Positions 572 to 40,410 of a DNA stretch of 43,402 nucleotides are shown here, in pieces (position 1 is the first letter of the stretch; every line of letters starts with the position of its first letter). The stretch lies in assembly GCA_902489225.1 (NCBI GenBank), contig CABTZA010000001.1, positions 1 through 43,402 of the forward strand, given 5' to 3'. Both the position numbers and the translations under genes were made by a program. The DNA comes from an uncultured Collinsella sp. (GTDB lineage: Bacteria > Actinomycetota > Coriobacteriia > Coriobacteriales > Coriobacteriaceae). Below the pieces are notes generated by a model. The model saw only the letters and a list, made by a program, of their open reading frames with translations, did no database searches and was not told the DNA's origin.

Positions 572-928
572 GTGTCTGAGACCATTAACGGCAGCCTGAG
601 CGTCTCGAACGACGTTATTGCCGATATTGCCGGTTATGCCGCGATGACGTGCTATGGCGTTGTCGGTATGGCTGAGCAGCTCCAGGGCGCCGAGAGCGTG
701 CGCCTGCTTGCCGGTCAGCGCCTCCGCAAGGGCGTGCTTGTCTCCGCCGACGAGAACGGCCTTACGGTCGATCTTCACGTCGTGCTCGAGAACGGCGTCA
801 ACATGAAGTCCGTCTGCCACAATCTTTCGAGCTCCGTTGCCTTCACCCTGCAGGAGATCGCCCAGATCGATCCCGCCAGCCTTAAGATCGGCATCCATAT
901 CGACGCGCTCAAGAGCCGTCTGAACTAG
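572..928 (+). CDS. Asp23/Gls24 family protein (YloU-like)
   Basis: GTG start after AAGGAG. 'GSLSVSNDVIADIAGYAAMTCYGVVGM' motif. Directly upstream of a DAK2 gene, as in yloU-yloV. Confidence 0.9.
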   Translation: MSETINGSLSVSNDVIADIAGYAAMTCYGVVGMAEQLQGAESVRLLAGQRLRKGVLVSADENGLTVDLHVVLENGVNMKSVCHNLSSSVAFTLQEIAQIDPASLKIGIHIDALKSRLN

Positions 929-955
929 CATCCGAAAACGGAGATTCAAATACCC

Positions 956-2617
956 ATGATTGCAAAGACCATTCGCACCTGTTTTCCGATCGCTGCGGCT
1001 GCCGTTTCCGACAAGGCCGAGGAGATCAACAAGCTCAACGTCTTCCCCGTACCCGATGGTGATACCGGCACCAACATGTCGCTCACGCTCGCCTCGGTGA
1101 CCAAGGAGCTCTCTGCCCTTCCCGCCGATGCCGATATGGAGGCCATCGCCGGTGCCATCACCCACGGCTCTCTCATGGGCGCTCGCGGTAACTCCGGCGT
1201 TATTACCTCGCAGATTCTTCGCGGCGTGGCCGAGGGCCTTGTCTCTGCCGACGAGCCTATTACGTCCGCCAACATTGCCTTCGCCTTCCGTCGTGCCGTC
1301 AAGGTCGCCTTCCAGGCTGTCCGCAAGCCCATCGAGGGCACGATCCTCACGGTCCTGCGCGATGTCTCGACCAAGGCCGATGAGTGCGAGAAGAAGAAGT
1401 TCTCGGCCGAGGATGCGCTCGATGCTATCGTCGTCGAGGCGTACCAGTCCGTCGCCCGCACGCCCGACTTGCTGCCCGTCCTCAAAGAGAACGGCGTGGT
1501 CGACTCAGGCGCCTTCGGCTTTGCCATCTTCCTGGAGAACTTTGTTGCCGCCGCGCTTGGTCGCAGCACCGTTGTCGAGGATTTCTCCGCTACGTTTGAC
1601 TCCGCCGGCTCTGCCCGCGATGCCGCTCTTGGCCGCGTTGAGATCGAGGCTAACGACGACTGGGAGGGCTCGGAGTTCCGCTACTGCAACGAGTTTCTCT
1701 TTAAGGCCGACGCCCCGTTTGACGAGGACGAATGCCTTAAGTTCCTAGGCTCCATGGGCGACTGTGAGCTGCTCGTGGGCGCCTATCCCGACTACAAGAT
1801 CCATGTGCACTCCAATACCCCCAACCTGGTGCTCGAGCACATGCTGCAGCTCGGTCAGATCTATGAGGTCTTTATCCACAACATGGAGATGGAGGCCCAC
1901 GACCGTACCGCTAAGATCCACGAGGATCAGGAAAAGGCCGCCGAGCCCGCCAAGGCGCTGGGCTTTGTCGCCGTTGCCGCCGGTTCCGGCGAGGCCGACA
2001 TCCTCAAGTCCCTTGGCGTCGACGTGGTCGTCTCCGGTGGCCAGACTATGAATCCCTCGACCGCCGACCTGCTGGGCGCGGTGGACCAGGTCAACGCGAC
2101 CTCGGTCATCATCTTGCCCAACAACGGCAACATCCGCATGGCCGCTGAGGCTGCTGCCTCAGCCTGCACCGACAAGAAGGTCGCCGTCGTTCCCACCAAG
2201 ACCGTCCCGCAGGCCTTCTCCGCGCTGTTCGCAGTCCTGCCCGATTCCGAGCTCGAGGATGCCGTCGCCGCCATGGTCGACGCCATCAGCGAGGTCCGCG
2301 ATGGCGAGGTCACCCGCGCCGTGCGCGACTCTAGTGCCTCTGACGGCTCGCCGATTCACTCCGGTGACGTCATGGGTATCATCGCCGGCTCCATCGACGT
2401 GGTCGGCTCCGACGTGAAGCAGGTCACGCTCGACTGCATCAACCGCATGCAGGAGGAAGAGGAGGGCGACGCGCTGACGATTCTGGCCGGCGAGGAGCTG
2501 TCCGATGAGGCCTTCCAGGAGATCGTCGACGCCATCGAGGAAGCTCAGCCCGACTTGGAGATTGACGCCCATCGTGGCGAGCAGCCGCTCTATCCCGTGA
2601 TCTTCTCGATCGAGTAG
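956..2617 (+). CDS. fakA: DAK2-domain protein, fatty acid kinase catalytic subunit (FakA/YloV-like)
   Basis: 'INKLNVFPVPDGDTGTNM', 'GARGNSGVITSQ', 'GVVDSGA', 'GGQTMNPST' motifs. Confidence 0.9.
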   Translation: MIAKTIRTCFPIAAAAVSDKAEEINKLNVFPVPDGDTGTNMSLTLASVTKELSALPADADMEAIAGAITHGSLMGARGNSGVITSQILRGVAEGLVSADEPITSANIAFAFRRAVKVAFQAVRKPIEGTILTVLRDVSTKADECEKKKFSAEDALDAIVVEAYQSVARTPDLLPVLKENGVVDSGAFGFAIFLENFVAAALGRSTVVEDFSATFDSAGSARDAALGRVEIEANDDWEGSEFRYCNEFLFKADAPFDEDECLKFLGSMGDCELLVGAYPDYKIHVHSNTPNLVLEHMLQLGQIYEVFIHNMEMEAHDRTAKIHEDQEKAAEPAKALGFVAVAAGSGEADILKSLGVDVVVSGGQTMNPSTADLLGAVDQVNATSVIILPNNGNIRMAAEAAASACTDKKVAVVPTKTVPQAFSALFAVLPDSELEDAVAAMVDAISEVRDGEVTRAVRDSSASDGSPIHSGDVMGIIAGSIDVVGSDVKQVTLDCINRMQEEEEGDALTILAGEELSDEAFQEIVDAIEEAQPDLEIDAHRGEQPLYPVIFSIE

Positions 2618-2627
2618 GCATCTGCCC

Positions 2628-4805
2628 ATGTCCGAGCTCTGCTCCGTGCCGCGCGTCTCGGAGCGCTTTGCCCAGAGCAATGCGCTCGACGAGGATATCG
2701 CGCGACTCAAATATGTTTCGGGTAAACGTGAGGAGGCCCTTCGCCGTCTGGGAATTAGGACGGTGGGGGACCTCCTTCTCCATATCCCTCATCGATACCT
2801 CGACTTTACCCGTTCGTGGTCCATCGAGATGGCGCCCATCGGTACCGTGTGCACCATCATCGCCACGGTCGACCGCATCGTCCAAAAGCAGCCGCGTCCG
2901 CGCATGCAGGTGACCGAGGTATCGCTGGTGGACGAGACGGGCGTGTTGCAGGTCGCCTTTTTCCGCCAGCCCTGGATTGCCCAGCAGCTTAAACAGGGCG
3001 ACCGCCTGGCCGTGATGGGCAAGGTCGAGTTTGACTACGGTTTTAAGCAGATGGCCTCGCCGCACTTTGAAAAGCTCGATGACGGGCGTGCTGCGGGCAC
3101 CATCCTGCCGGTCCATTACGTGAGCGATGGCGTGAGCCAGGCGTGGATGCGCCGCATCGTAAGCGGCGCGCTCGAGGTCGTCGGCAATCCGTTCGATCCG
3201 ATTCCCGCGCCGCTGCGCGCAAAGCGGAAGCTCATGAGCAATGCCCGCGCGTTGCGTTCGATCCACTTTCCATCGAGTATGGCAGAGCGCGATATCGCGC
3301 GCGCACGGCTTGCCTACGAGGAGTGCCTCTACCTGCAGCTGGCGCTGCGCCTGCGCAACGTCGGCGGCCTGGTCGATGTGGTTCCCTATGCCCACACCGC
3401 GGGCGAGCACCTGGCCGCGCTTAAGCAAGCCCTGCCGTTTTCGCTGAGCGACGAGCAGGAGACCGCGTTCCAAGATATCCTGCGCGATATGTGCGATGGT
3501 GGGCGCGTGATGAACCGCCTGCTGCTGGGCGATGTCGGTACCGGTAAGACCGCCGTTGCCGCCTGCGCTCTGGCTGTGGCTGCCGATAGCGGTACGCAGG
3601 CCTGCGTTATGGCGCCCACGGGCGTGTTGGCGCGCCAATATGCCGATAAGACCGGCCCTCTGCTCTCGCAGGCGGGCATATCCTGGGCGCTTCTGACGGG
3701 TGCCACGCCGGCCTCAGAGCGCGAGCAGATCCATGCCCAGCTTGAATCGGGCGAGCTCGACGTCCTCTTTGGAACCCACGCGGTGCTTTCGGATAACGTT
3801 GCGTTCAATCATCTGTCGCTTGTCGTCATCGACGAGCAGCACCGGTTTGGCGTTGGCCAACGCAACGCCCTACGCGCGAAGGGCCCCGGTGCGGACCTGC
3901 TCGTTATGACGGCGACACCGATCCCGCGTACGCTGGCGCTTTCGGTCTACGGCGATCTGGACACGAGTATCATCCGCCATCGGCCCGTCCCTGGCGCTGG
4001 CGTGACGACACGCGTGCTCACCGAGTCGAGCCGCGACCTCGCCTATGGCGCCATCCGCGAGGCGCAGGAAAAGGGTCAGCAGGCCTACGTGATTTGCCCG
4101 CTCGTGGAGCCGAGTGACTCGGCCGATGAGCTTGAAGACGTGCCCGGTATCGCCCGCGACGACGAGGGCCGCGTGACCGTGCCTGTGCCGCTGCACGATA
4201 CGGCGACCGAGCTCGATCGCCTGCGTCTGGCGTTGCCGGGTCTTGCCATCGAGCGCCTTCACGGCCGTATGCCAGCGGGGGAGAAGGATCGCGTGATCGA
4301 CGCCTTCAAGCGTGGCGAGATTGACGTGCTCGTCTCGACTACGGTGGTCGAGGTGGGCGTCGACGTGCCCAACGCCACCGTCATGGTCATCGAGAACGGT
4401 GAGCGGTTTGGCTTGGCGGCGCTGCATCAGCTACGCGGTCGCGTGGGCCGCGGCAGCGTGTCGGGCACGTGCCTGGTCATGACGCACTCCAAGGGCAATG
4501 GCGGCGCCTCGGCGGCACAAGACCGTCTCCAGTCGCTCGAAAAGACCTCGGATGGTTTTACGCTTGCCCAGATGGACCTGCGTCTGCGTCACGAGGGCGA
4601 AATCCTGGGGTACCGTCAGCACGGTGGCGTGACCTTGCGCTTTGTGGACCTGGATGCCGATGAGGACCTTATCGAATGGGCCCATTTGGACGCGGTCGAG
4701 CTCTTGCGGTATGCTTGCAACCTTGACTCTGTGGCGACGCGTCCCTTGCGCGAGGCGGTCGCCATGCGTTATCGACATATCTTTAAGGAGGTCAGCGGAG
4801 GATGA
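2628..4805 (+). CDS. recG: ATP-dependent DNA helicase RecG
   Basis: 'MNRLLLGDVGTGKT', 'IDEQHRFGV', 'MTATPIPRTL', 'LHQLRGRVGRG'. Confidence 0.97.
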   Translation: MSELCSVPRVSERFAQSNALDEDIARLKYVSGKREEALRRLGIRTVGDLLLHIPHRYLDFTRSWSIEMAPIGTVCTIIATVDRIVQKQPRPRMQVTEVSLVDETGVLQVAFFRQPWIAQQLKQGDRLAVMGKVEFDYGFKQMASPHFEKLDDGRAAGTILPVHYVSDGVSQAWMRRIVSGALEVVGNPFDPIPAPLRAKRKLMSNARALRSIHFPSSMAERDIARARLAYEECLYLQLALRLRNVGGLVDVVPYAHTAGEHLAALKQALPFSLSDEQETAFQDILRDMCDGGRVMNRLLLGDVGTGKTAVAACALAVAADSGTQACVMAPTGVLARQYADKTGPLLSQAGISWALLTGATPASEREQIHAQLESGELDVLFGTHAVLSDNVAFNHLSLVVIDEQHRFGVGQRNALRAKGPGADLLVMTATPIPRTLALSVYGDLDTSIIRHRPVPGAGVTTRVLTESSRDLAYGAIREAQEKGQQAYVICPLVEPSDSADELEDVPGIARDDEGRVTVPVPLHDTATELDRLRLALPGLAIERLHGRMPAGEKDRVIDAFKRGEIDVLVSTTVVEVGVDVPNATVMVIENGERFGLAALHQLRGRVGRGSVSGTCLVMTHSKGNGGASAAQDRLQSLEKTSDGFTLAQMDLRLRHEGEILGYRQHGGVTLRFVDLDADEDLIEWAHLDAVELLRYACNLDSVATRPLREAVAMRYRHIFKEVSGG

Positions 4806-31653: not shown

Positions 31654-31684
31654 CCGATTGCGCATCCTTCTTAAGGAGCATGCC

Positions 31685-32932
31685 ATGGCAACTAATCAAG
31701 AAACGGCCGTCATTAAGGCGCGCATGGACCGTATTCCCTCGGCGTTGTCGCCCGAACTTGTCGAGCGCATTGCCGCCGATCGTGCTTCGGGCTATGTCAA
31801 CCCGTATCGTTGCAACGACGATCAGGTCATTCGTCGTATTGATCGCGCCGCCGACAAAGGCACGCTTATGCGTCCGGCGTTTATGCGCGATACCGAAAAG
31901 ATACTTCATCTTCCGGCGTACAACCGTTATGCAGGCAAAACGCAGGTCTTTAGCTTCCGTAGCAATGACGATCTGTCACGCCGCGGTTTGCACGTGCAGC
32001 TCGTCTCCCGCATTGCGCGCGATATCGGTCGCGCCCTGGGGCTCAATTGCGATCTGATCGAGGCGATTGGCCTGGGTCACGACTTGGGACACACGCCTTT
32101 CGGCCATGCCGGCGAGCGTTTCCTCAACGATATCTATCATGAGCGTACGGGGCGTTATTTTTTCCATAACGTGCAGTCGGTCCGCGTGCTCGACACACTG
32201 TACGGCCGCAACGTGTCGCTCCAGACGCTCGACGGCGTGCTATGCCATAACGGCGAGTACGAGCAGCGTGTGTTTGAGCTCTCGGACATGAGCTCCTTTG
32301 ACCAGTTTGACCAGACGGTTGAGGATTGCATTGCCACGGGCTATAGCGCAATTGGGCATCTGCGTCCCATGACGCTCGAGGGCTGCGTCGTTCGCATCTC
32401 GGATATTCTTGCCTACGTCGGTCGTGACCGTCAGGATGCGATCGCGGCGGGCCTGCTTTCGCCCGACGTTTTTGATGATGGCCGGGGCGGTGCCTACAAC
32501 AGTTGGATCCTTACGCACGCTTCCATCGATATCGTTGAGCACAGCTATGGTAAGCCGCGCATCGAGATGAGCGAGGACCTGTTTGGGGAAATCCGCCGAG
32601 CCAAGCGCGAGAACTACGAGAAGATCTATAGCAAGGGCGGTATCGAAGGCGATTCCGAGGTGGAGCTGCGCGAGGCCTTCGAAAAGCTCTACGACCGTTG
32701 CCTGCGGGATCTAAATAGTGGTGACGAGTCCTCTTACATCTTTAAGCACCATATTTCGCGCATTGAGCAGCAACTTTCCTACTACGATCGCACCTATGCC
32801 TGGCAGGACGACAAGGATCAAGCCGTGGTGGATTATATCGCGAGCATGACGGACGGTTATTTCTGCGAACTGACGAGCAAGCTGTTCCCGGGTCTAAAGT
32901 TTCCGCATCGTACCTATATTAACGAACGGTAG
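31685..32932 (+). CDS. dgt: HD-domain dGTP triphosphohydrolase-like protein
   Basis: 'FMRDTEKILH', 'KTQVF', 'GLGHDLGHTPFGHAGE', 'DYIASMTD'. ATG 31685 after AAGGAG. Confidence 0.88.
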   Translation: MATNQETAVIKARMDRIPSALSPELVERIAADRASGYVNPYRCNDDQVIRRIDRAADKGTLMRPAFMRDTEKILHLPAYNRYAGKTQVFSFRSNDDLSRRGLHVQLVSRIARDIGRALGLNCDLIEAIGLGHDLGHTPFGHAGERFLNDIYHERTGRYFFHNVQSVRVLDTLYGRNVSLQTLDGVLCHNGEYEQRVFELSDMSSFDQFDQTVEDCIATGYSAIGHLRPMTLEGCVVRISDILAYVGRDRQDAIAAGLLSPDVFDDGRGGAYNSWILTHASIDIVEHSYGKPRIEMSEDLFGEIRRAKRENYEKIYSKGGIEGDSEVELREAFEKLYDRCLRDLNSGDESSYIFKHHISRIEQQLSYYDRTYAWQDDKDQAVVDYIASMTDGYFCELTSKLFPGLKFPHRTYINER

Positions 32933-32993
32933 TTCGTATCCTTTCGGTATACTGGTTAGTTGAAAACGTTTTTGATTGATGCACGGGATGGCT

Positions 32994-34343
32994 ATGGACG
33001 ACCTTTTTTCTGCCTCGACGCGCGAGCGTTCCTTTAAAAATGCGCCGCTCGCGGTGCGCATGCGACCCAATTCGCTCGACGAGTACGTGGGCCAGCAAAA
33101 GGCCGTCGGTAAGGGCTCATGGTTGCGTGCCGCGATCGAGCACGACGTGCTTTCCAGCGTGATTCTGTACGGGCCGGCCGGTACGGGTAAGACGACGCTG
33201 GCCCACATTATCGCCAACCATACCAAGAGCGAGTTTGTCGAGGTCAGCGCCGTGACGGGTACCGTGAAGGATCTTCGCCGCGTGATTGACGAGGCCAAGA
33301 CGCGCCTGAATACCTACGACCGCCGCACCATCCTGTTTATCGACGAGATTCACCGCTTCTCCAAGTCTCAGCAGGATGCCTTGCTGCATGCGGTTGAGAA
33401 CCGTACCGTCATTATGATTGGCGCCACGACGGAGAATCCGTACTTCGAGGTCAACTCGGCATTGCTCTCGCGCGGTCGCGTGGTGGAGCTTGAGCATCTT
33501 AAAGACGAGGATATCGCCACGCTTATCGAGCGTGCGCTCGAGGCGCCGCAGGGTTTGAACGGCAAGTTCTCGGCCGATGAGGATACGGTTAAGACCATCT
33601 GCACGCTGGCAGCGGGTGACGCTCGCTCGGCGCTCACGACGCTCGAACTTGCGAGCGAGATTGCCGTCACGCGTCCCGATACCGAGGGAACGCCAGCGCC
33701 CGTGGCGGGGGAGCGCTATCCCATCACCGTGGATGACGTGAAGATCGCCAACCCGCGTCGTGGATTTTCGTATGACAAAAACGGCGACATGCACTACGAC
33801 ATCATCAGTGCGTTTATTAAGTCCATGCGCGGTAGCGACCCCGATGCCACAATCTATTGGCTCGCGCGCATGATTGATGCGGGGGAGGATCCTAAGTTTA
33901 TCGCTCGCCGCATTATGATTCAGGCTTCTGAGGATGTTGGCAACGCCGACCCGCAGGCGCTTTTGGTGGCGCATGCCGCGTTTAAGTCTGCCGAGGTCAT
34001 TGGCTATCCCGAGTGCCGCATTAACCTGGCTCAGGCTGCACTCTATGTGTGTTTGGCCCCTAAATCCAACGCGTGTGAGGCTTCGATTGATACGGCGCTG
34101 GCCGATATCCATTCTAGTGGGCTTCGCGAGGTGCCGAGTTATCTGCGCGATCGCCATCGCCCAGGCAGCGACGACTACGGTGTGTATAAATACCCGCACG
34201 ATTATCCCGAAGGCTGGGTCGATCAGCGCTATTTGCCCGAGGGGCTGGAGCGCGGTGCGTTCTGGCAGCCTGCCGGGCGCGGCTGGGAAGAGTGGCGCGT
34301 AGAGCAAAGCGAGCGCGACCGCAGCGGGAATGCACCGAAGTAG
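32994..34343 (+). CDS. rarA: Replication-associated recombination protein A (RarA/MgsA)
   Basis: 'APLAVRMRP', 'GPAGTGKTT', 'FIDEIHRF', 'GATTENP', 'HYDIISAFIKSMRGSD'. Start uncertain (32976-32994). Confidence 0.95.
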   Translation: MDDLFSASTRERSFKNAPLAVRMRPNSLDEYVGQQKAVGKGSWLRAAIEHDVLSSVILYGPAGTGKTTLAHIIANHTKSEFVEVSAVTGTVKDLRRVIDEAKTRLNTYDRRTILFIDEIHRFSKSQQDALLHAVENRTVIMIGATTENPYFEVNSALLSRGRVVELEHLKDEDIATLIERALEAPQGLNGKFSADEDTVKTICTLAAGDARSALTTLELASEIAVTRPDTEGTPAPVAGERYPITVDDVKIANPRRGFSYDKNGDMHYDIISAFIKSMRGSDPDATIYWLARMIDAGEDPKFIARRIMIQASEDVGNADPQALLVAHAAFKSAEVIGYPECRINLAQAALYVCLAPKSNACEASIDTALADIHSSGLREVPSYLRDRHRPGSDDYGVYKYPHDYPEGWVDQRYLPEGLERGAFWQPAGRGWEEWRVEQSERDRSGNAPK

Positions 34344-34443
34344 CTGCTGATAATTTTGTCCCACGTTGCTACTCTTGGCATGTTCGGTCCCCTTTGGGGT
34401 ACCATGAAAAGCGTCTGTATATCGATTCCTTTGGGAGGCTTGT

Positions 34444-35031
34444 ATGAGTCCCATTCAAATCGCCCTGCTGCTGCTCGCCGTTGCCGGCGTGTGGGCCATC
34501 GCTGAGCTCGCGCTTACCCTGCGCAAGACCCGCAATGTTGTCGACTCGCTCGATAAGACCGTGAACGACCTCAACAACACCATCGCCGAGGCTCAGCCTG
34601 TGGTGGCAAAGCTCGATGGCGCTGTCGATGAGCTTACGCCGGCACTTGCCCAGATGGAGCCGCTGCTTAAGTCGAGCAAGACGGCAGTTGATGCCCTTAC
34701 CTCCAATCTCGTAGAGGTCGAAGCCGTGGTTCGCGACATTTCTGAGGTTACGGGCAGCATGGCCGAGGCCAGCAATGCTGTGTCTAGCGTGACCGACTCT
34801 GCCGCCGGTGCTGTGCAGAAGCTCTTCAATAAGGTGAAGGCTCCTGCAGCCGACGCCGATCGCAAGCTCGCCGCTGCCGCTGCGGAGGCCGAGCTGCCTA
34901 CCGAGCGCGTCCTAATTGGCGAGGACGAGGCTGCCGCGGGCGACGATGATGGTCAGAAGTCTGTATCCAAGCCGGCTCAGTATTACACCTATACGCCCGC
35001 CGAGACCTCTGAGGAGTCCTGCGATGAGTAG
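34444..35031 (+). CDS. DUF948 (YoxC/YtxG-like) membrane-anchored coiled-coil protein
   Basis: N-terminal TM helix, then an amphipathic coiled coil 'LRKTRNVVDSLDKTVNDLN...', then an acidic tail. Confidence 0.7.
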   Translation: MSPIQIALLLLAVAGVWAIAELALTLRKTRNVVDSLDKTVNDLNNTIAEAQPVVAKLDGAVDELTPALAQMEPLLKSSKTAVDALTSNLVEVEAVVRDISEVTGSMAEASNAVSSVTDSAAGAVQKLFNKVKAPAADADRKLAAAAAEAELPTERVLIGEDEAAAGDDDGQKSVSKPAQYYTYTPAETSEESCDE

Positions 35032-35401
35032 CGAAGCAACCTGCCCTATCACGCTGACCGTTGCCGGTGACCCGCGTCTCGCTCGCCTTGTGCGCATGAC
35101 GGCAGCCAACGTTGGTGCCCTGTGCTCTATGTCTGTCGATCGCATCGAGGACATCCGCATGGCTGCTGAGGAGGCTTTCATCTTTGGTTGCACCGCGGTC
35201 GACTGCGATGACATCACCATCAAATTCGATGTCGATGAGACCCATGTTGGCATGACTATTACCTTTGGCGACCAGGCTACGGTCGATGAAGACGACCAGG
35301 CTGCGGTGTATGCCGAGCTCATCCTCGCGAGCGTGTGCGACTCCTACGAAAAGACTACGGCGCCCCTGACGCTTTCCCTCGACCTCAAGGCGGATATCTA
35401 A
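35024..35401 (+). CDS. RsbW/SpoIIAB-like anti-sigma factor, degenerate kinase fold
   Basis: 'LTVAGDPRLARLVRMTAANVG...SVDRIEDIRMAAEEA' resembles the RsbW N-terminal half. Immediately upstream of a SigB-like sigma. ATG 35024 after GAGGAG. Confidence 0.75.
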   Translation: MSSEATCPITLTVAGDPRLARLVRMTAANVGALCSMSVDRIEDIRMAAEEAFIFGCTAVDCDDITIKFDVDETHVGMTITFGDQATVDEDDQAAVYAELILASVCDSYEKTTAPLTLSLDLKADI

Positions 35402-35402
35402 T

Positions 35403-36194
35403 ATGACCGAACGTTCCCGGAGCGGCAAGACCGCTTGGGACAAGGAGAAAACCCGCGAGCTGTTTCGTCGTTACAAGGAGACCGGTGATCCGGACGCCCG
35501 TGAGCAGCTCGTCATGTCCCATATGAACCTGGTAAGGTTTCTTGCCAACAAATTTAAGAATCGCGGCGAGCCGCTCGACGACCTCATGCAGGTCGGCTAT
35601 CTGGGCTTGCTCAAGGCTATCGACCGTTTTGACCCCGAGCGCGGACTCGAGTTCACGACGTTTGCGACACCCACTATCCTGGGCGAGATCAAACGCCATT
35701 TTCGCGACAAGGGCTGGAGTGTGCGCGTACCGCGTCGTCTGCAGGAGCTCTCGGCCAAGGTCAACCAGGCTACTGACAAACTTACCAACGAGCTGCAGCG
35801 TTCGCCCAAGGTTGAGGAGATCGCTGAGTATCTAGATGTGACTGTCGATGAGGTCCTCGAGGCTATGGAATCGTCTTCGGCCTATACCTCGGTGCCCATC
35901 GAGGCTCCTGGTGCGTCCGATTCCGACGATGCCCCTTCGATTCTCGACCGTTACGCCGACGACGACAACGAGCTCGACTTTACCGATGACCGCCTAGTGA
36001 TCGAGGAAGCCATCCGTGATTTCTCGCCGCGCGAGCGCGAGGTGATCGAGCTGCGCTTTGTGAAGGGCATGACCCAGATCGAGATCGCCAAGAAGCTGGG
36101 TATTTCTCAGGTGCAGGTTTCGCGTCTGCTGCGCCGCACGCTTAAGAAGATTCAGGACAAGATCGACCCCGACGGAGTGATGATTCGTTCATGA
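35403..36194 (+). CDS. SigB/SigF/SigG family RNA polymerase sigma factor
   Basis: 'DDLMQVGYLGLLKAIDRFDPERG', 'FATPTILGEIKRHFRDKGWSVRVPRRLQE', 'TQIEIAKKLGISQVQVSRLL'. Confidence 0.95.
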   Translation: MTERSRSGKTAWDKEKTRELFRRYKETGDPDAREQLVMSHMNLVRFLANKFKNRGEPLDDLMQVGYLGLLKAIDRFDPERGLEFTTFATPTILGEIKRHFRDKGWSVRVPRRLQELSAKVNQATDKLTNELQRSPKVEEIAEYLDVTVDEVLEAMESSSAYTSVPIEAPGASDSDDAPSILDRYADDDNELDFTDDRLVIEEAIRDFSPREREVIELRFVKGMTQIEIAKKLGISQVQVSRLLRRTLKKIQDKIDPDGVMIRS

Positions 36195-37600
36195 GTGAAC
36201 ACCCCCAACAAACCGATCGCGTGCTGCGCGACACCCGCATTCTGACGCTTCGCATTTGGGCTGTTGTCGGCTGCATTGTCATCGCCGCTGTCATCTTTAA
36301 CCTTATGGGCATCCTGGCGCCGGTTATCGAGTTTCTCGCTGTTGGTTCCATCATTGCCTTTGTGATGTCCCCGATCACCAACTGGCTCGAGCACCATGGC
36401 GTGAATCGCGGCATCGGTTCGCTTATCGCGCTTATTGTTGTTGTTGCCGTGCTCGTCGGTGTCGTTTGCATCTTGTCGCCGATTCTCTTTGGTCAGATCA
36501 TGGAAGTCCTGAGCCGCCTGCCCGAGCAGCTTCGTGTTGCGGGTGGCGATCTCAATGAGATGATCTCGCATGCCAAGACGCTCCATAACACGCCGCTCAA
36601 GGAGTATTTGGACGATAATCTTTCGTCGCTGGTTACCGTGGCATCGAAGTATGTGTCTCAGATTGCTGCCGAGCTTGGCCGCGGTGTGTTCCCGCTCATC
36701 ACCAATACGGCCTCGCAGTTGTTCGTGATCTTCCTTGGTCTGGTGCTTGCCTACTGGATGGCCTGCGACTACCCTCGCATGCATCACGAGATTTGCACCA
36801 TCATCGGTCAGGAGAAGGAGACCTCGTACCGCTTTATTGTCGCCATCCTTTCTCGCTCTGTCGGCGGCTACATGCGCGGTATGGTCGTGACGTCCATCTG
36901 CGGTGGTTTCCTCGCCTTTATCGGCTTCCTGATTATCGGCCATCCGTATGCGGCGCTCATGGCTATCTTCACTGGCATCATGCACTTGGTTCCGGTCGTC
37001 GGTCCCTGGGTGAGCGCGGCAATCGCCACGGTACTCGGCTTTATGTTCAGCCCCATGTTGGCGTTATGGACGCTCATCGTGACGATGGTCGCGCAAAACG
37101 TCACCGACAATGTGATTTCGCCTAAGGTCATGCAGAGCTCAGTGCAGGTGCATCCCATTATGAGCCTTACGGCTCTCGTTATTGGTTCGGCACTCATGGG
37201 GCCCATCGGCATGATTATTGCCATCCCGCTTTGTGCGGCCCTCAAGGGCATCTTCGTGTACTACTTCGAGAATGAGACCGGCCGTCAGCTTGTGGCCTAT
37301 GACGGAGCCGTGTTTAAGGGCACGCCGTACCGCGATGCCGATGACAACCCGGTCGCCGCCTACGACGCGCTCGGCGACGACACCTTCATCTATGAGTCCG
37401 AGCTCATCGGTAACGAGACTGCGCCCGAGGCCCAGGCCATGCCCAAACCCGAGCTCGATAATCCCTGGATGAAGCTCTCGGGCCTTCAGCCCGATGCTAC
37501 GGGCTTTTTCAAGAATCCCTTCGCCAAAGACGACGATTTCAATATGAACGACGACACCAAAACCGGCATCGACGGCTCCATGGACGATGACGACAACTAG
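36191..37600 (+). CDS. AI-2E (PerM) family transporter with acidic C-terminal extension
   Basis: Multi-TM; 'VPVVGP', 'DNVISPKVMQSSVQVHP', 'GPIGMIIAIP'. ATGA overlap with the sigma gene. Confidence 0.92.
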   Translation: MSEHPQQTDRVLRDTRILTLRIWAVVGCIVIAAVIFNLMGILAPVIEFLAVGSIIAFVMSPITNWLEHHGVNRGIGSLIALIVVVAVLVGVVCILSPILFGQIMEVLSRLPEQLRVAGGDLNEMISHAKTLHNTPLKEYLDDNLSSLVTVASKYVSQIAAELGRGVFPLITNTASQLFVIFLGLVLAYWMACDYPRMHHEICTIIGQEKETSYRFIVAILSRSVGGYMRGMVVTSICGGFLAFIGFLIIGHPYAALMAIFTGIMHLVPVVGPWVSAAIATVLGFMFSPMLALWTLIVTMVAQNVTDNVISPKVMQSSVQVHPIMSLTALVIGSALMGPIGMIIAIPLCAALKGIFVYYFENETGRQLVAYDGAVFKGTPYRDADDNPVAAYDALGDDTFIYESELIGNETAPEAQAMPKPELDNPWMKLSGLQPDATGFFKNPFAKDDDFNMNDDTKTGIDGSMDDDDN

Positions 37601-37650
37601 CGGGGTAATTCGGATTAATATTCATACGCGCTAACATGCAATTTCGCTGA

Positions 37651-37680
37651 AGGGCCGGCATTGTGCCGGCCCTCTTTTTT
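37651..37680 (+). terminator. Terminator closing the sigma operon
   Basis: AGGGCCGGCA-ttg-TGCCGGCCCT-CTTTTTT. Confidence 0.85.
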
Positions 37681-37752
37681 GCACAGGCGCGGCGGGATGG
37701 TAATATCGTTACGTTTGAACTGTTTCGATGTGAAACCGAGGAGATTCCCTCT

Positions 37753-40410
37753 ATGAGTGCTGACTACCCGTCAATGACTACGGCCGAGATTCGCTCCAAG
37801 TTCCTCAACTTCTTTGAGGAGCGCGGTCTTAAGCTCTATCCTTCTTCGTCTCTTGTTCCCGACGATCCTTCGCTGCTGCTTGCCAACGCCGGCATGAACC
37901 AGTTTAAGGAGTACTACCAGGGCAAGAAGACCATGAAGGAGATCGGCGCGATTTCCTGCCAGAAGTGCGTCCGCACCAACGACATCGATTGTATCGGCGA
38001 GGACGGCCGTCACCTGTCCTTCTTCGAGATGCTCGGCGACTTCTCTTTTGGCGGCGTCTCCAAGGAGCAGGCTTGCGCCTGGGCCTTTGAGCTCATCACC
38101 AAGGAGTTCAAGCTGCCGCTCGACCGCCTGTACTTCACCGTCTTTACCGAGGACGACGAGACCCACGACGTGTGGCGTTCTCTGGGCGTTGCTGAGGACC
38201 ACATCTCCCGCCTGGGCGAGGACGATAACTTCTGGGCCGCTGGCCCCACCGGTCCCTGCGGTCCGTGCTCAGAGATCTACTTTGACATGGGCGAGGAGGT
38301 CGGCTGCGGCAGCCCCGACTGCAAGCCTGGCTGCGACTGCGACCGCTTCCTGGAGTTCTGGAACCTCGTCTTTACCCAGTACGACCGCCAGGAGGACGGC
38401 TCCTTGCCGGAGCTGCCGCACCGCAACCTCGATACGGGCATGGGCCTGGAGCGCATGGCCGCCATCATGCAGCACAAGACCGCCAACTACGACGGCGATC
38501 TGATGCAGCACCTCATCAAGCTGGGCGAGAAGATTAGCGGCAAGACCTATGACGCCGACGATTACTCTGGCGCCAGCCGCTCCCTGCGTATCATCGCCGA
38601 CCACTCCCGTGCCGTCGACTTTATGATCTCGGACGGCATCCTTCCCGGTAACGAGGGTCGCGAGTACGTCCTTCGCCGCCTGCTCCGTCGTGCCGTGTTC
38701 CACGGTCGCCTGCTGGGCATCGAGGGCGCCTTCCTGACCAAGTTCATCGACGAGGTTAACGCTCAGATGGGCGAGGCTTATCCCGAGCTGCTCAAGAATG
38801 TCGCGCTCGTCAAGGGTATCGTCGCCTCCGAGGAGGAGCGCTTCTCCACGACGCTCGACAACGGCCGCGTCTATCTGGACGAGGCCCTGGCAGCGCTTGC
38901 CGAGGGCGCCGTGCTTCCGGGCGATGTCGCCTTTAAACTGCACGACACCTTTGGTTTCCCCATCGATCTGACCGTCGAGATCGCCGGCACCGCTGGCCAC
39001 GACGTCGATATGGACGGCTTCACTGCCTGCATGGAGGACCAGAAGGCCCGCGCCCGCGCCAATGCCAAGGGCGACGCCTGGGGCAGCTTCAACGACGTGT
39101 GGGTCGAGCTTTCGGACAAGGTCGCAGCGACCGAGTTCGACGGCTATGACAACGATGTGATCGAGGGCGCCAAGGTTGTCGCCATCGTGCGCAACGGCGA
39201 GTCCGTCGAGTCTGCTGCCGCCGGCGAGGATGTCGAGGTTGTGCTCGACCGCACCCCGTTCTATGCCGAGATGGGTGGCCAGCAGGGCGATGCCGGCAAG
39301 CTTTCCGCCGAGGGCGTTGTTCTGACCGTTGCCGACACCAAGAACCACAACGGCCTGTATGCCCACGTCGCGCACGTTGCCGAGGGCACGCTGACTGTCG
39401 GTGCCGCTGTTACCGCCGCGCTCGACGCCGAGCGCCGTGGCTTCCTGCGCCGCAACCACACCGCCACGCACCTGCTCGACGCCGCCCTTAAGCAGGTCCT
39501 GGGCGAGCATGTCTCCCAGGCCGGTTCGCTGGTGACGCCCGAGCACCTGCGCTTTGACTTCACGCACTTCGAGGCCCTGTCCTCCGAGCAGCTCAAGGCT
39601 GTCGAGGACCTGGTCAACCAGCAGATCTTCGCTTCCAAGCCGGTTGTGACCCGTGTCATGGGCATCGACGAGGCTAAGGCTGCCGGCGCTGTCGCTCTGT
39701 TTGGAGAGAAGTACGGCGATGTTGTCCGCGTCGTCTCCGTGGGCGCCGAGGACCAGCCGTTCTCCCGCGAGCTCTGTGGTGGCACTCATGCCGCCAATAC
39801 CGCCGAGATTGGCCTCTTCAAGATCATTTCCGAGTCCTCCACGGGCTCCAATGTCCGCCGTATCGAGGCCGTGACCTCTAAGGGTGCCCTCGACTACATG
39901 GCCGACCGCCTGGCGCTCGTTGACGCCGCCGCCGCTGCGCTCAAGTGCCGCGTCGACGAGGTTCCCGCCCGCGTGGAGAACCTGCAGGCCGAGCTGCGCG
40001 AGACGTCCAACAAGCTCAAGAAGGCGCTCACTGGTGGCTCCTCCGATGCAATCTCCAACGCCATCGAGGGTGCTGTCGAGCTGAATGGCTACAAGCTCGT
40101 TGTTGCTGAGCTTCAGGGTCTCGAGGCCGCTGACCTGCGCAACGTTTGGGATACCGTGCACCAGAAGGTCGCCGGCCCTGTCGCCTGCGTTGTTGCCAGC
40201 GTGACCGAGAAGGGCACCCCGGCCCTGCTCGCCGCCGGCTCCGATGACGCCGTGAAGGCCGGTTTCCACGCCGGCAACGTGATCAAGCAGATCGCGGGCC
40301 TGGTCGATGGTCGCGGTGGCGGCCGTCCCAACATGGCCCAGGCCGGTGGCAAGAACGCTGCCGGTATCGCCGATGCCCTTGCGGCCGCCAAGACCGCGCT
40401 CGGCGCCTAA
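37753..40410 (+). CDS. alaS: Alanine--tRNA ligase
   Basis: 'NAGMNQFK', 'GPCGPCSEIY', 'DTGMGLER', 'TPFYAEMGGQ', editing motifs 'NHTATH' and 'ELCGGTH', 'GGGRPNMAQAGG'. Start 37753 or 37774. Confidence 0.98.
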   Translation: MSADYPSMTTAEIRSKFLNFFEERGLKLYPSSSLVPDDPSLLLANAGMNQFKEYYQGKKTMKEIGAISCQKCVRTNDIDCIGEDGRHLSFFEMLGDFSFGGVSKEQACAWAFELITKEFKLPLDRLYFTVFTEDDETHDVWRSLGVAEDHISRLGEDDNFWAAGPTGPCGPCSEIYFDMGEEVGCGSPDCKPGCDCDRFLEFWNLVFTQYDRQEDGSLPELPHRNLDTGMGLERMAAIMQHKTANYDGDLMQHLIKLGEKISGKTYDADDYSGASRSLRIIADHSRAVDFMISDGILPGNEGREYVLRRLLRRAVFHGRLLGIEGAFLTKFIDEVNAQMGEAYPELLKNVALVKGIVASEEERFSTTLDNGRVYLDEALAALAEGAVLPGDVAFKLHDTFGFPIDLTVEIAGTAGHDVDMDGFTACMEDQKARARANAKGDAWGSFNDVWVELSDKVAATEFDGYDNDVIEGAKVVAIVRNGESVESAAAGEDVEVVLDRTPFYAEMGGQQGDAGKLSAEGVVLTVADTKNHNGLYAHVAHVAEGTLTVGAAVTAALDAERRGFLRRNHTATHLLDAALKQVLGEHVSQAGSLVTPEHLRFDFTHFEALSSEQLKAVEDLVNQQIFASKPVVTRVMGIDEAKAAGAVALFGEKYGDVVRVVSVGAEDQPFSRELCGGTHAANTAEIGLFKIISESSTGSNVRRIEAVTSKGALDYMADRLALVDAAAAALKCRVDEVPARVENLQAELRETSNKLKKALTGGSSDAISNAIEGAVELNGYKLVVAELQGLEAADLRNVWDTVHQKVAGPVACVVASVTEKGTPALLAAGSDDAVKAGFHAGNVIKQIAGLVDGRGGGRPNMAQAGGKNAAGIADALAAAKTALGA

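Follow-up and report, generated by a model that had tools for sequence, protein, structure and literature searches.

An arrangement in which a kinase-less anti-sigma factor is served by switch proteins encoded elsewhere is already known in mycobacteria. In Mycobacterium smegmatis, RsbW1, the orthologue of UsfX encoded beside sigF, is described in PMC7693655 as an anti-SigF factor that does not phosphorylate the STAS antagonist RsfB, and RsbW2, in which the N, G1 and G2 motifs are all retained, as the sole RsfB kinase, with no binding of SigF. A PP2C phosphatase has been proposed to dephosphorylate RsfB (PMC7693655, Oh et al. 2020). Rv1364c, a fusion of sensor, PP2C, kinase and STAS parts, is cited in the same paper as phosphorylating its own STAS domain (PMC7693655). 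Here, a sigma/anti-sigma gene pair is described that lies in a stretch of 43,402 nucleotides from an uncultured Collinsella sp. (contig CABTZA010000001.1, positions 1 to 43,402, assembly GCA_902489225.1), the whole of which is called the window below, and its relatives are followed across the class Coriobacteriia. A full-text literature search on sigma/anti-sigma control in Coriobacteriia found nothing relevant.

The pair consists of two genes, flanked by genes 1 and 4, to which we return below:

35024..35401, forward strand: gene 2, 125 amino acids, putative anti-sigma factor of the UsfX/RsbW1 type, with a predicted GHKL fold that has no N, G1 or G2 boxes and no ATP lid
35403..36194, forward strand: gene 3, 263 amino acids, group-3 sigma factor of the SigB/SigF/SigG family

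On the grounds of fold, motif loss, gene order and co-distribution, genes 2 and 3 and several unlinked genes of the same genome probably, though by no means certainly, make up a partner switch that is split as in the SigF system of mycobacteria.

An apparently kinase-less relative of RsbW

In Collinsella and Coriobacteriaceae the gene 2 protein has many close relatives, 120-129 residues long. These are called 'ATP-binding protein' in some sources, an annotation that the sequence of the small protein does not support. The profiles of the RsbW kinases match it below their cut-offs: HATPase_c_2 (PF13581) reaches 17.8 bits against 27.4 and aligns at model positions 3-77 of 127 only, and the RsbW model TIGR01924 reaches 19.6 bits against 155. 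An AlphaFold2 model made from 27 sequences has a predicted local distance difference test score (pLDDT) of 89.1 and a predicted template modelling score (pTM) of 0.84; its elements run in the order strand, two helices, two strands, helix, two strands, and the predicted architecture is the Bergerat/GHKL alpha-beta fold of the RsbW/SpoIIAB type. The top Foldseek matches to this model are RsbW (6m36, E 9e-9), UsfX of Mycobacterium tuberculosis (8ih8 and 8jzt) and SpoIIAB (1l0o). VIA-align gives Z scores of 17.6 for RsbW (root-mean-square deviation 1.5, 108 residues aligned), 16.0 for SpoIIAB and 15.8 for UsfX, and the ATP domains of histidine kinases come next, with Z of 9 or below.

The initial annotation of this DNA had taken gene 2 for an RsbW-like protein with a dead kinase, a description that both the predicted fold and the motifs bear out. 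HMMER alignments place the sequence EEAFIFG where RsbW reads E-A-C-T-N; the N-box Asn of RsbW faces Phe54 of the window protein, a position at which most relatives have Tyr, and neither DxGxG nor GxG occurs in the translation, just as had been read there. The loss extends to the family at large. Among 209 members of 110-160 residues, many of them close kin, 188 have an alignable helix-2 motif, and none of these carries Asn at the N-box position (Tyr in 94, Phe in 48, Leu in 18, other residues in 28); DxGxG is found in 3 of the 209 and GxGxG in one. In the model, just 11 residues link strand 74-80 to helix 92-104, at the place that would correspond to the G1 box, the ATP lid and the G2 box of SpoIIAB.

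Wider profile comparisons point to the class to which the protein belongs. Profile A5 was built from 35 sequences, the window protein first, with distant representatives 22-30% identical to it; it matches UsfX chains over positions 1-118 of 130 (8jzt_B, E 1.3e-14; 8ih8_C, E 3.4e-14), and only its first 80 positions or so align with RsbW (E 3.4e-21) and SpoIIAB (about 1e-5). In the A5 alignment UsfX likewise has a helix 2 without Asn and a short C-terminal half. A narrower profile, A2, searched against the PDB found RsbW alone, by its N-terminal part only, and did not reach UsfX. An exhaustive search of representatives with the gene 2 family returned 554 cluster representatives at E <= 0.001, and all 28 weak matches inspected are of the short, box-less type; Arg24 and Glu50 are invariant across the wide alignment of the family. 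By the full-length match of the wider profile to UsfX, the gene 2 protein is therefore placed by sequence among the kinase-less relatives of RsbW, a broad class with UsfX as a characterised example.

The sigma factor and the predicted complex

The product of gene 3 scores 290 bits with TIGR02980 (SigB/SigF/SigG; cut-off 234.35), in agreement with the SigB-like assignment made initially, and sigma-70 regions 2, 3 and 4 (PF04542, PF04539 and PF04545) are each over their cut-offs. Its identity to homologues in the class is 53-84%. In this genome the SigB/F/G model has two matches at E <= 1e-20, of which gene 3 is the one over the cut-off; the other is presumably the primary sigma factor. In each of 20 distant loci, a homologue of gene 2 adjoins the sigma gene.

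Modelling of the anti-sigma/sigma complex, which the initial annotation had named as a check, supports binding of the sigma factor by the small protein. For two copies of the gene 2 protein and one sigma factor, the interface score ipSAE is 0.68 (0.70, 0.67 and 0.68 in the separate runs), and the best of three controls gives 0.02. Of 157 solved complexes 116 attain that mark, as do 2 of 215 mismatched pairs. The runs share at least 70% of their contacts, and the partner pLDDT is at least 70. The predicted interface comprises residues 21, 24-25, 28-29, 32, 35-42 and 45 of the small protein (helix 1, the loop and helix 2) and mainly residues 124-156, in region 3, of the sigma factor. The invariant Arg24 sits within the modelled interface.

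These results bear on the idea that the small protein might be a decayed remnant of RsbW devoid of anti-sigma function, the sigma factor being governed by transcription only. Scores under both the Pfam and the NCBIfam cut-offs (17.8 and 19.6 bits) and the loss of all catalytic boxes would fit such decay. Nevertheless, the gene is kept in single copy in 158 of the 200 Coriobacteriia genomes sampled, always with the sigma gene, and its product has conserved motifs, including the invariant Arg24 and Glu50, a confidently predicted fold, a high modelled complex score with clean controls and full-length homology to the proven anti-sigma factor UsfX, all of which makes decay a very improbable explanation.

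Candidate switch proteins encoded elsewhere

The initial annotation had found no anti-anti-sigma factor, which stands for the window's contig, where STAS and SpoIIE/PP2C searches gave zero matches, but not for the genome, an assembly of 272 contigs that is 81.6% complete. On contig C53 (locus L005), a gene for a GAF-SpoIIE phosphatase of 698 residues (1483-3579, minus strand) is followed directly downstream by one for a fusion of 254 residues (658-1422, minus strand) that begins with a STAS domain (67 bits) and ends with a HATPase_c_2 domain (59 bits), in which the N, G1 and G2 boxes are intact. A second STAS gene, on contig C31, encodes a single-domain protein of 104 residues with a DSTG serine motif.

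The C53 pair is conserved across the class. All of 10 STAS-kinase fusions contain E...N...H, DxGxG and GxGxxxM. The PP2C gene is the immediate upstream neighbour of the fusion gene, in the same orientation, at 9 of 10 distant loci; in the tenth it is nearby on the opposite strand. The phosphatases of distant families have about 1100 residues, with a HAMP domain and several GAF domains. Two further matches were seen in the Collinsella genome itself: an extra HATPase_c_2 match over the cut-off on contig C40 (2270-2608, plus strand; a frame of 577 residues) and a weak second SpoIIE-like match on contig C32 (7836-8063, plus strand; a frame of 645 residues).

Genome G150 (family f23) has a second, paralogous cluster (locus L164, contig C52, 3099-4927, minus strand) in which a STAS gene, a gene for a kinase-less small protein and a sigma gene follow one another in the classical order. 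It is the sole case seen of a STAS gene beside this anti-sigma family, and by this arrangement of genes it ties the gene 2 family to STAS antagonists.

Distribution across Coriobacteriia

Occurrence was counted in the sample of 200 genomes, with SpoIIE counted in an order-level sample of 91; families are given by our own handles (f1 and so on). The small protein is found in 158 genomes, in single copy in all but one, SigB/F/G matches over the cut-off in 157, and the STAS-kinase fusion in 154. The STAS family occurs in 174, and no genome of a sigma-bearing family is without it. Small protein, sigma factor and fusion were each found in none of the genomes of families f2 (0/25), f4 (0/2), f7 (0/10) and f8 (0/3). 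The standalone STAS protein, sought by a single-protein search, is present in 46/46 genomes of f1 and 19/19 of f3 and in none of f2, f4, f7 and f8; it is less frequent in distant families, such as f6 (10 of 34), which probably reflects the limited sensitivity of a query of 104 residues. SpoIIE is present in 11/11 genomes of f1 and 10/11 of f3, and in 0/12 of f2 and 0/11 of f4. The unlinked STAS, PP2C and kinase genes are co-distributed with the sigma/anti-sigma pair and missing from the same families, which is to be read as a pattern and not as a statistic, counts among relatives not being independent.

The initial proposal of an undescribed, phosphorylation-independent control system is not supported: the small protein groups with UsfX and RsbW1, a described class of kinase-less anti-SigF factors for which STAS antagonist, kinase and PP2C are encoded at other loci, and this genome has such unlinked genes, co-distributed with the sigma factor. 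A STAS protein might antagonise the small protein without any phospho-switch from C53, for instance through redox state or abundance, and the C53 pair would then be a self-contained module with another output. The presence of standalone STAS in all 46 f1 and all 19 f3 genomes, including two that have no detectable fusion (G069 and G101), agrees with this, as do two mycobacterial precedents given in PMC7693655: RsfA is governed by a disulfide bond and not by phosphorylation, and fusions of the Rv1364c type phosphorylate their own STAS domain. On the other hand, the standalone STAS protein retains the DSTG serine motif typical of phosphorylated antagonists, and fusion and PP2C have been lost along with the sigma pair in f2 and f4. 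We regard this alternative as rather unlikely.

The split partner switch, the explanation that we favour, would operate as follows. A dimer of the gene 2 protein, as in the modelled complex, would hold the SigB/F/G-type sigma factor through helices 1 and 2. We infer that a non-phosphorylated STAS antagonist encoded elsewhere would free the sigma factor, the candidates being the standalone STAS protein of 104 residues (C31), the STAS domain of the fusion of 254 residues (C53), or both. The kinase half of the fusion, not the anti-sigma factor, and the adjacent PP2C with its GAF sensor would together determine whether the antagonist is phosphorylated. Genes 1 and 4 would form a housekeeping block co-expressed with the nested pair, and would not regulate the sigma factor.

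Several points weigh against this explanation, besides the non-independence of the counts. Two genomes, G101 (f1, 99% complete) and G069 (f3, 100% complete), have the sigma pair and standalone STAS, and the fusion was not found in them with the query used; the fusion/PP2C pair is therefore not indispensable. G069 is also without SpoIIE, and in G019 (f5) the pair is present and no fusion was found at E <= 1e-10. The complex score of 0.68 may mirror the solved SpoIIAB-SigF and UsfX-SigF complexes, and is thus a likeness and not proof. A comparison by hhalign of the A2 family alignment with the C53 STAS-kinase gave a probability of 0.1%, a value that is uninformative given the single-sequence template. 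UsfX is reported to bind nucleotide, going by the title of a paper alone, and missing boxes are therefore no proof of missing ATP binding. Lastly, co-expression is the sole explanation offered for the tight linkage of genes 1 and 4 with the pair throughout the class (20/20 loci).

If correct, this explanation would extend the mycobacterial split partner switch, in which a kinase-less anti-sigma factor goes with a kinase of its own gene, to another deep class of actinobacteria, the second. It would also supply a parts list, going by the literature search above the first such for Coriobacteriia, of a candidate stress or adaptation regulator in an abundant human gut commensal: the sigma pair, the standalone STAS protein, the STAS-kinase fusion and the GAF-PP2C phosphatase.

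The surrounding gene block

The pair is embedded in a set of four tightly coupled genes, the remaining features of which are as follows:

34397..34405, forward strand: candidate -10 element (GGGTAC / TACCAT), read by eye, about 40 nucleotides 5' of gene 1
34444..35031, forward strand: gene 1, 195 amino acids, DUF948 (FacZ/YtxG)-like, with a putative membrane helix at the N-terminus and a putative coiled coil
36191..37600, forward strand: gene 4, 469 amino acids, AI-2E family permease (YtvI-like), with an acidic C-terminal tail at about residues 356-469
37651..37680, forward strand: terminator-like hairpin and T run, closing the four-gene set

The tight coupling and the single closing terminator had been noted initially, and both are found again. 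Genes 1 and 2 overlap by 8 nucleotides (GATGAGTAG), one nucleotide separates genes 2 and 3, and genes 3 and 4 share an ATGA overlap. The hairpin at 37651-37673 has 10 pairs, 8 of them G-C, followed by the T run, and is the sole strong terminator-like hairpin on the forward strand. GGGAGG stands 5 nucleotides 5' of the ATG of gene 1, and GAGGAG 7 nucleotides 5' of that of gene 2 (35024). A TTG further upstream (34916, giving 161 residues) was considered as the start of gene 2 and dropped, as homologues start at the ATG at 35024, preceded by GAGGAG at 7 nucleotides.

The order of these genes, for which the initial annotation had named a survey across Coriobacteriia as a check, is conserved: small protein, sigma factor and AI-2E permease follow one another in 20/20 loci, each of a different distant genome. 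By phmmer, 16 of the loci have a gene 1 homologue upstream; in the other 4 an open reading frame with a membrane helix and a coiled coil was recognised by eye, of which two align with the gene 1 family, one of the two with a sub-threshold DUF948 match. A loci search with alignment A3 returned 80 loci, all from Collinsella at 99-100% identity, and gave no out-group context.

The family assignments of the two outer genes differ in firmness. Gene 4 is an AI-2E permease, as first proposed (PF01594, 183.1 bits against 34.3, residues 28-355, profile positions 7-323 of 327; TIGR02872, 115 bits, under the cut-off). For gene 1, the initial call of DUF948 holds insofar as a match to PF06103 is present, at 30.4 bits, and fails insofar as this is below the Pfam cut-off of 37.2; of 8 homologues, 5 also match below the cut-off (best 36.4) and 3 are unmatched at E <= 0.001. 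Because all 9 sequences tested fall short, membership of gene 1 in DUF948 is not established on profile grounds. Its Atlas neighbours bear the name DUF948, and an N-terminal membrane helix followed by a coiled coil can be seen by eye in alignment A6. FacZ, which has been equated with DUF948, and YtxG are described as a membrane protein guarding placement of the division site in Staphylococcus aureus and Bacillus subtilis (PMC10914604).

Alignment A6 also reveals an extra insert of about 22 residues within the coiled coil of the gene 1 proteins of f1 and f3. An acidic C-terminal tail with a Y-F-T-Y motif was seen in 4 of 7 sampled gene 1 proteins of these families; the window protein has YYTY and two others YVDY. 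Insert and acidic tail are both absent from the short forms (110-160 residues) of distant families.

The block that surrounds the pair persists where the pair is missing. The gene 1 family is present in 195/200 genomes, among them those of the sigma-less families f2 (25/25), f4 (2/2), f7 (10/10) and f8 (2/3). In 3/3 f2 loci (L161-L163) the order is rarA, gene 1 homologue, AI-2E gene and alaS, with nothing between gene 1 and the AI-2E gene. The sigma/anti-sigma pair is thus a unit of two genes set within a housekeeping block, rarA-DUF948-AI2E-alaS, that is itself conserved, and since genes 1 and 4 persist adjacent to each other in sigma-less families, they are not dedicated regulators of the sigma factor; the DUF948-like gene and the AI-2E gene may themselves constitute a functional pair. 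The lengths of the AI-2E proteins are 446-510 residues in f1 and f3, 388-420 in the other sigma-bearing families and 429-431 in f2, and the long tail is confined to f1 and f3.

These observations correct the idea of a four-part, membrane-linked regulator, in which the sigma factor would be controlled without STAS or phosphorylation and the anti-sigma factor would be tethered, sequestered or degraded via the DUF948-like protein or the acidic tail of the AI-2E permease. Translational coupling of the four genes speaks for such control, as does the order kept in all 20 distant loci, with the DUF948-like gene upstream in 16 (phmmer) and 4 more by eye; so do an anti-sigma factor without kinase boxes and the two sigma-bearing genomes without the fusion. 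Weighed against this are the retention of gene 1 in 195/200 genomes, sigma-less f2, f4 and f7 having it in every genome sampled, its adjacency to gene 4 without the pair in 3/3 f2 loci, and the restriction of the AI-2E tail to f1 and f3 (446-510 residues against 388-420 in other sigma-bearing families). Moreover, genomic STAS, PP2C and intact kinase genes follow the distribution of the sigma factor, and in G150 a STAS gene stands beside a paralogous pair. Control of this kind is therefore quite unlikely. It is equally improbable that the nesting is functional in another way, with the FacZ-like protein, the AI-2E permease or both docking the anti-sigma or sigma factor at the membrane or division site; were this so, envelope or division status would gate the sigma factor, besides or instead of the STAS switch.

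As to transcription, a scan for consensus sigma-70 promoters found none upstream of gene 1. The GGGTAC/TACCAT element (34397-34405), judged by eye, fits a SigF/SigB-type and an actinobacterial housekeeping -10 element alike. GGGTA(G/A/T) stands at a similar position in related loci of f1 and f3, and TGCTACACT takes its place in distant families. There, a conserved TGCTACACT-like element with the look of an extended -10 lies 30-45 nucleotides before the start codon of the gene 1 homologue in loci L048, L050, L051, L053, L054, L060 and L062-L064, with the variant TGATACACT in L060; in f1 and f3 it is replaced by sequences like GGGTA(G/A/T)AAT, the window having GGGGTACCAT.

Contigs assembled from RNA libraries span rarA through gene 4. 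In 2 of 4 runs, from two studies, they end at 37585-37589 and restart at 37640/37675, a weak hint of the terminator. In one of these two runs the ends at this place are loose, which points to strain differences, and the RNA contigs demonstrate neither a single transcript nor a transcript end. By translation and cross-matches between loci, the flanking genes encode an HD-domain phosphohydrolase-like open reading frame (31658-32932), a rarA/mgsA-type AAA ATPase (32976-34343) and an alanyl-tRNA synthetase (37663-40410); rarA and alaS border the block throughout the class.

Comparison with known systems

Gene 1 resembles FacZ and YtxG of S. aureus and B. subtilis in its putative membrane helix and coiled coil and in its sub-threshold DUF948 matches. 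It differs from them in its actinobacterial lineage, and in that gene 1 and its 8 homologues are all below the Pfam cut-off, 3 of the 9 being unmatched.

With RsbW of B. subtilis and with SpoIIAB, the gene 2 protein shares the fold (Z 17.6 and 16.0) and homology over the N-terminal 80 residues or so. It keeps the conserved Arg of helix 1, and its modelled 2:1 complex touches region 3 of the sigma factor. In contrast to these kinases, it has Phe for the N-box Asn (Tyr in most relatives) and neither DxGxG nor GxGxG, and some 20 residues are missing between strand 5 and the last helix. By comparison with SpoIIAB and from the secondary structure of the model, these missing residues are presumably the ATP lid. 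Unlike in the rsbV-rsbW-sigB and spoIIAA-AB-sigF operons, the STAS gene is not part of the operon of genes 2 and 3.

The C53 module holds the same parts as Rv1364c of M. tuberculosis, namely a GAF sensor, a SpoIIE-type PP2C, an RsbW-type kinase and a STAS domain, and the RsbU/RsbW part of Rv1364c (3ke6) superimposes on the gene 2 model with a Z of 14.5. Whereas Rv1364c is a single fusion, the C53 module is split into two genes, GAF-PP2C and then STAS-kinase, and its STAS domain precedes the kinase.

The closest likeness is to UsfX (Rv3287c) and RsbW1 (MSMEG_1803). The gene 2 protein matches UsfX chains 8jzt_B and 8ih8_C by its full-length profile and appears to have the same fold (Z 15.8), has no N-box Asn or G boxes either, and is likewise encoded directly upstream of a SigF-type sigma gene, here with a gap of one nucleotide. 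As in the mycobacterial system (PMC7693655), genes for a STAS protein, for an RsbW-type kinase with intact boxes and for a PP2C stand at other places in the genome. At 125 residues the gene 2 protein is shorter than RsbW1 (138, same paper) and the solved UsfX chains (141-145). The Collinsella system further differs from the mycobacterial one in that its kinase forms the C-terminal part of a STAS fusion and is paired with a GAF-PP2C, in that the sigma/anti-sigma pair is nested between DUF948-like and AI-2E genes, and in its host, an anaerobic gut bacterium of the Coriobacteriia.

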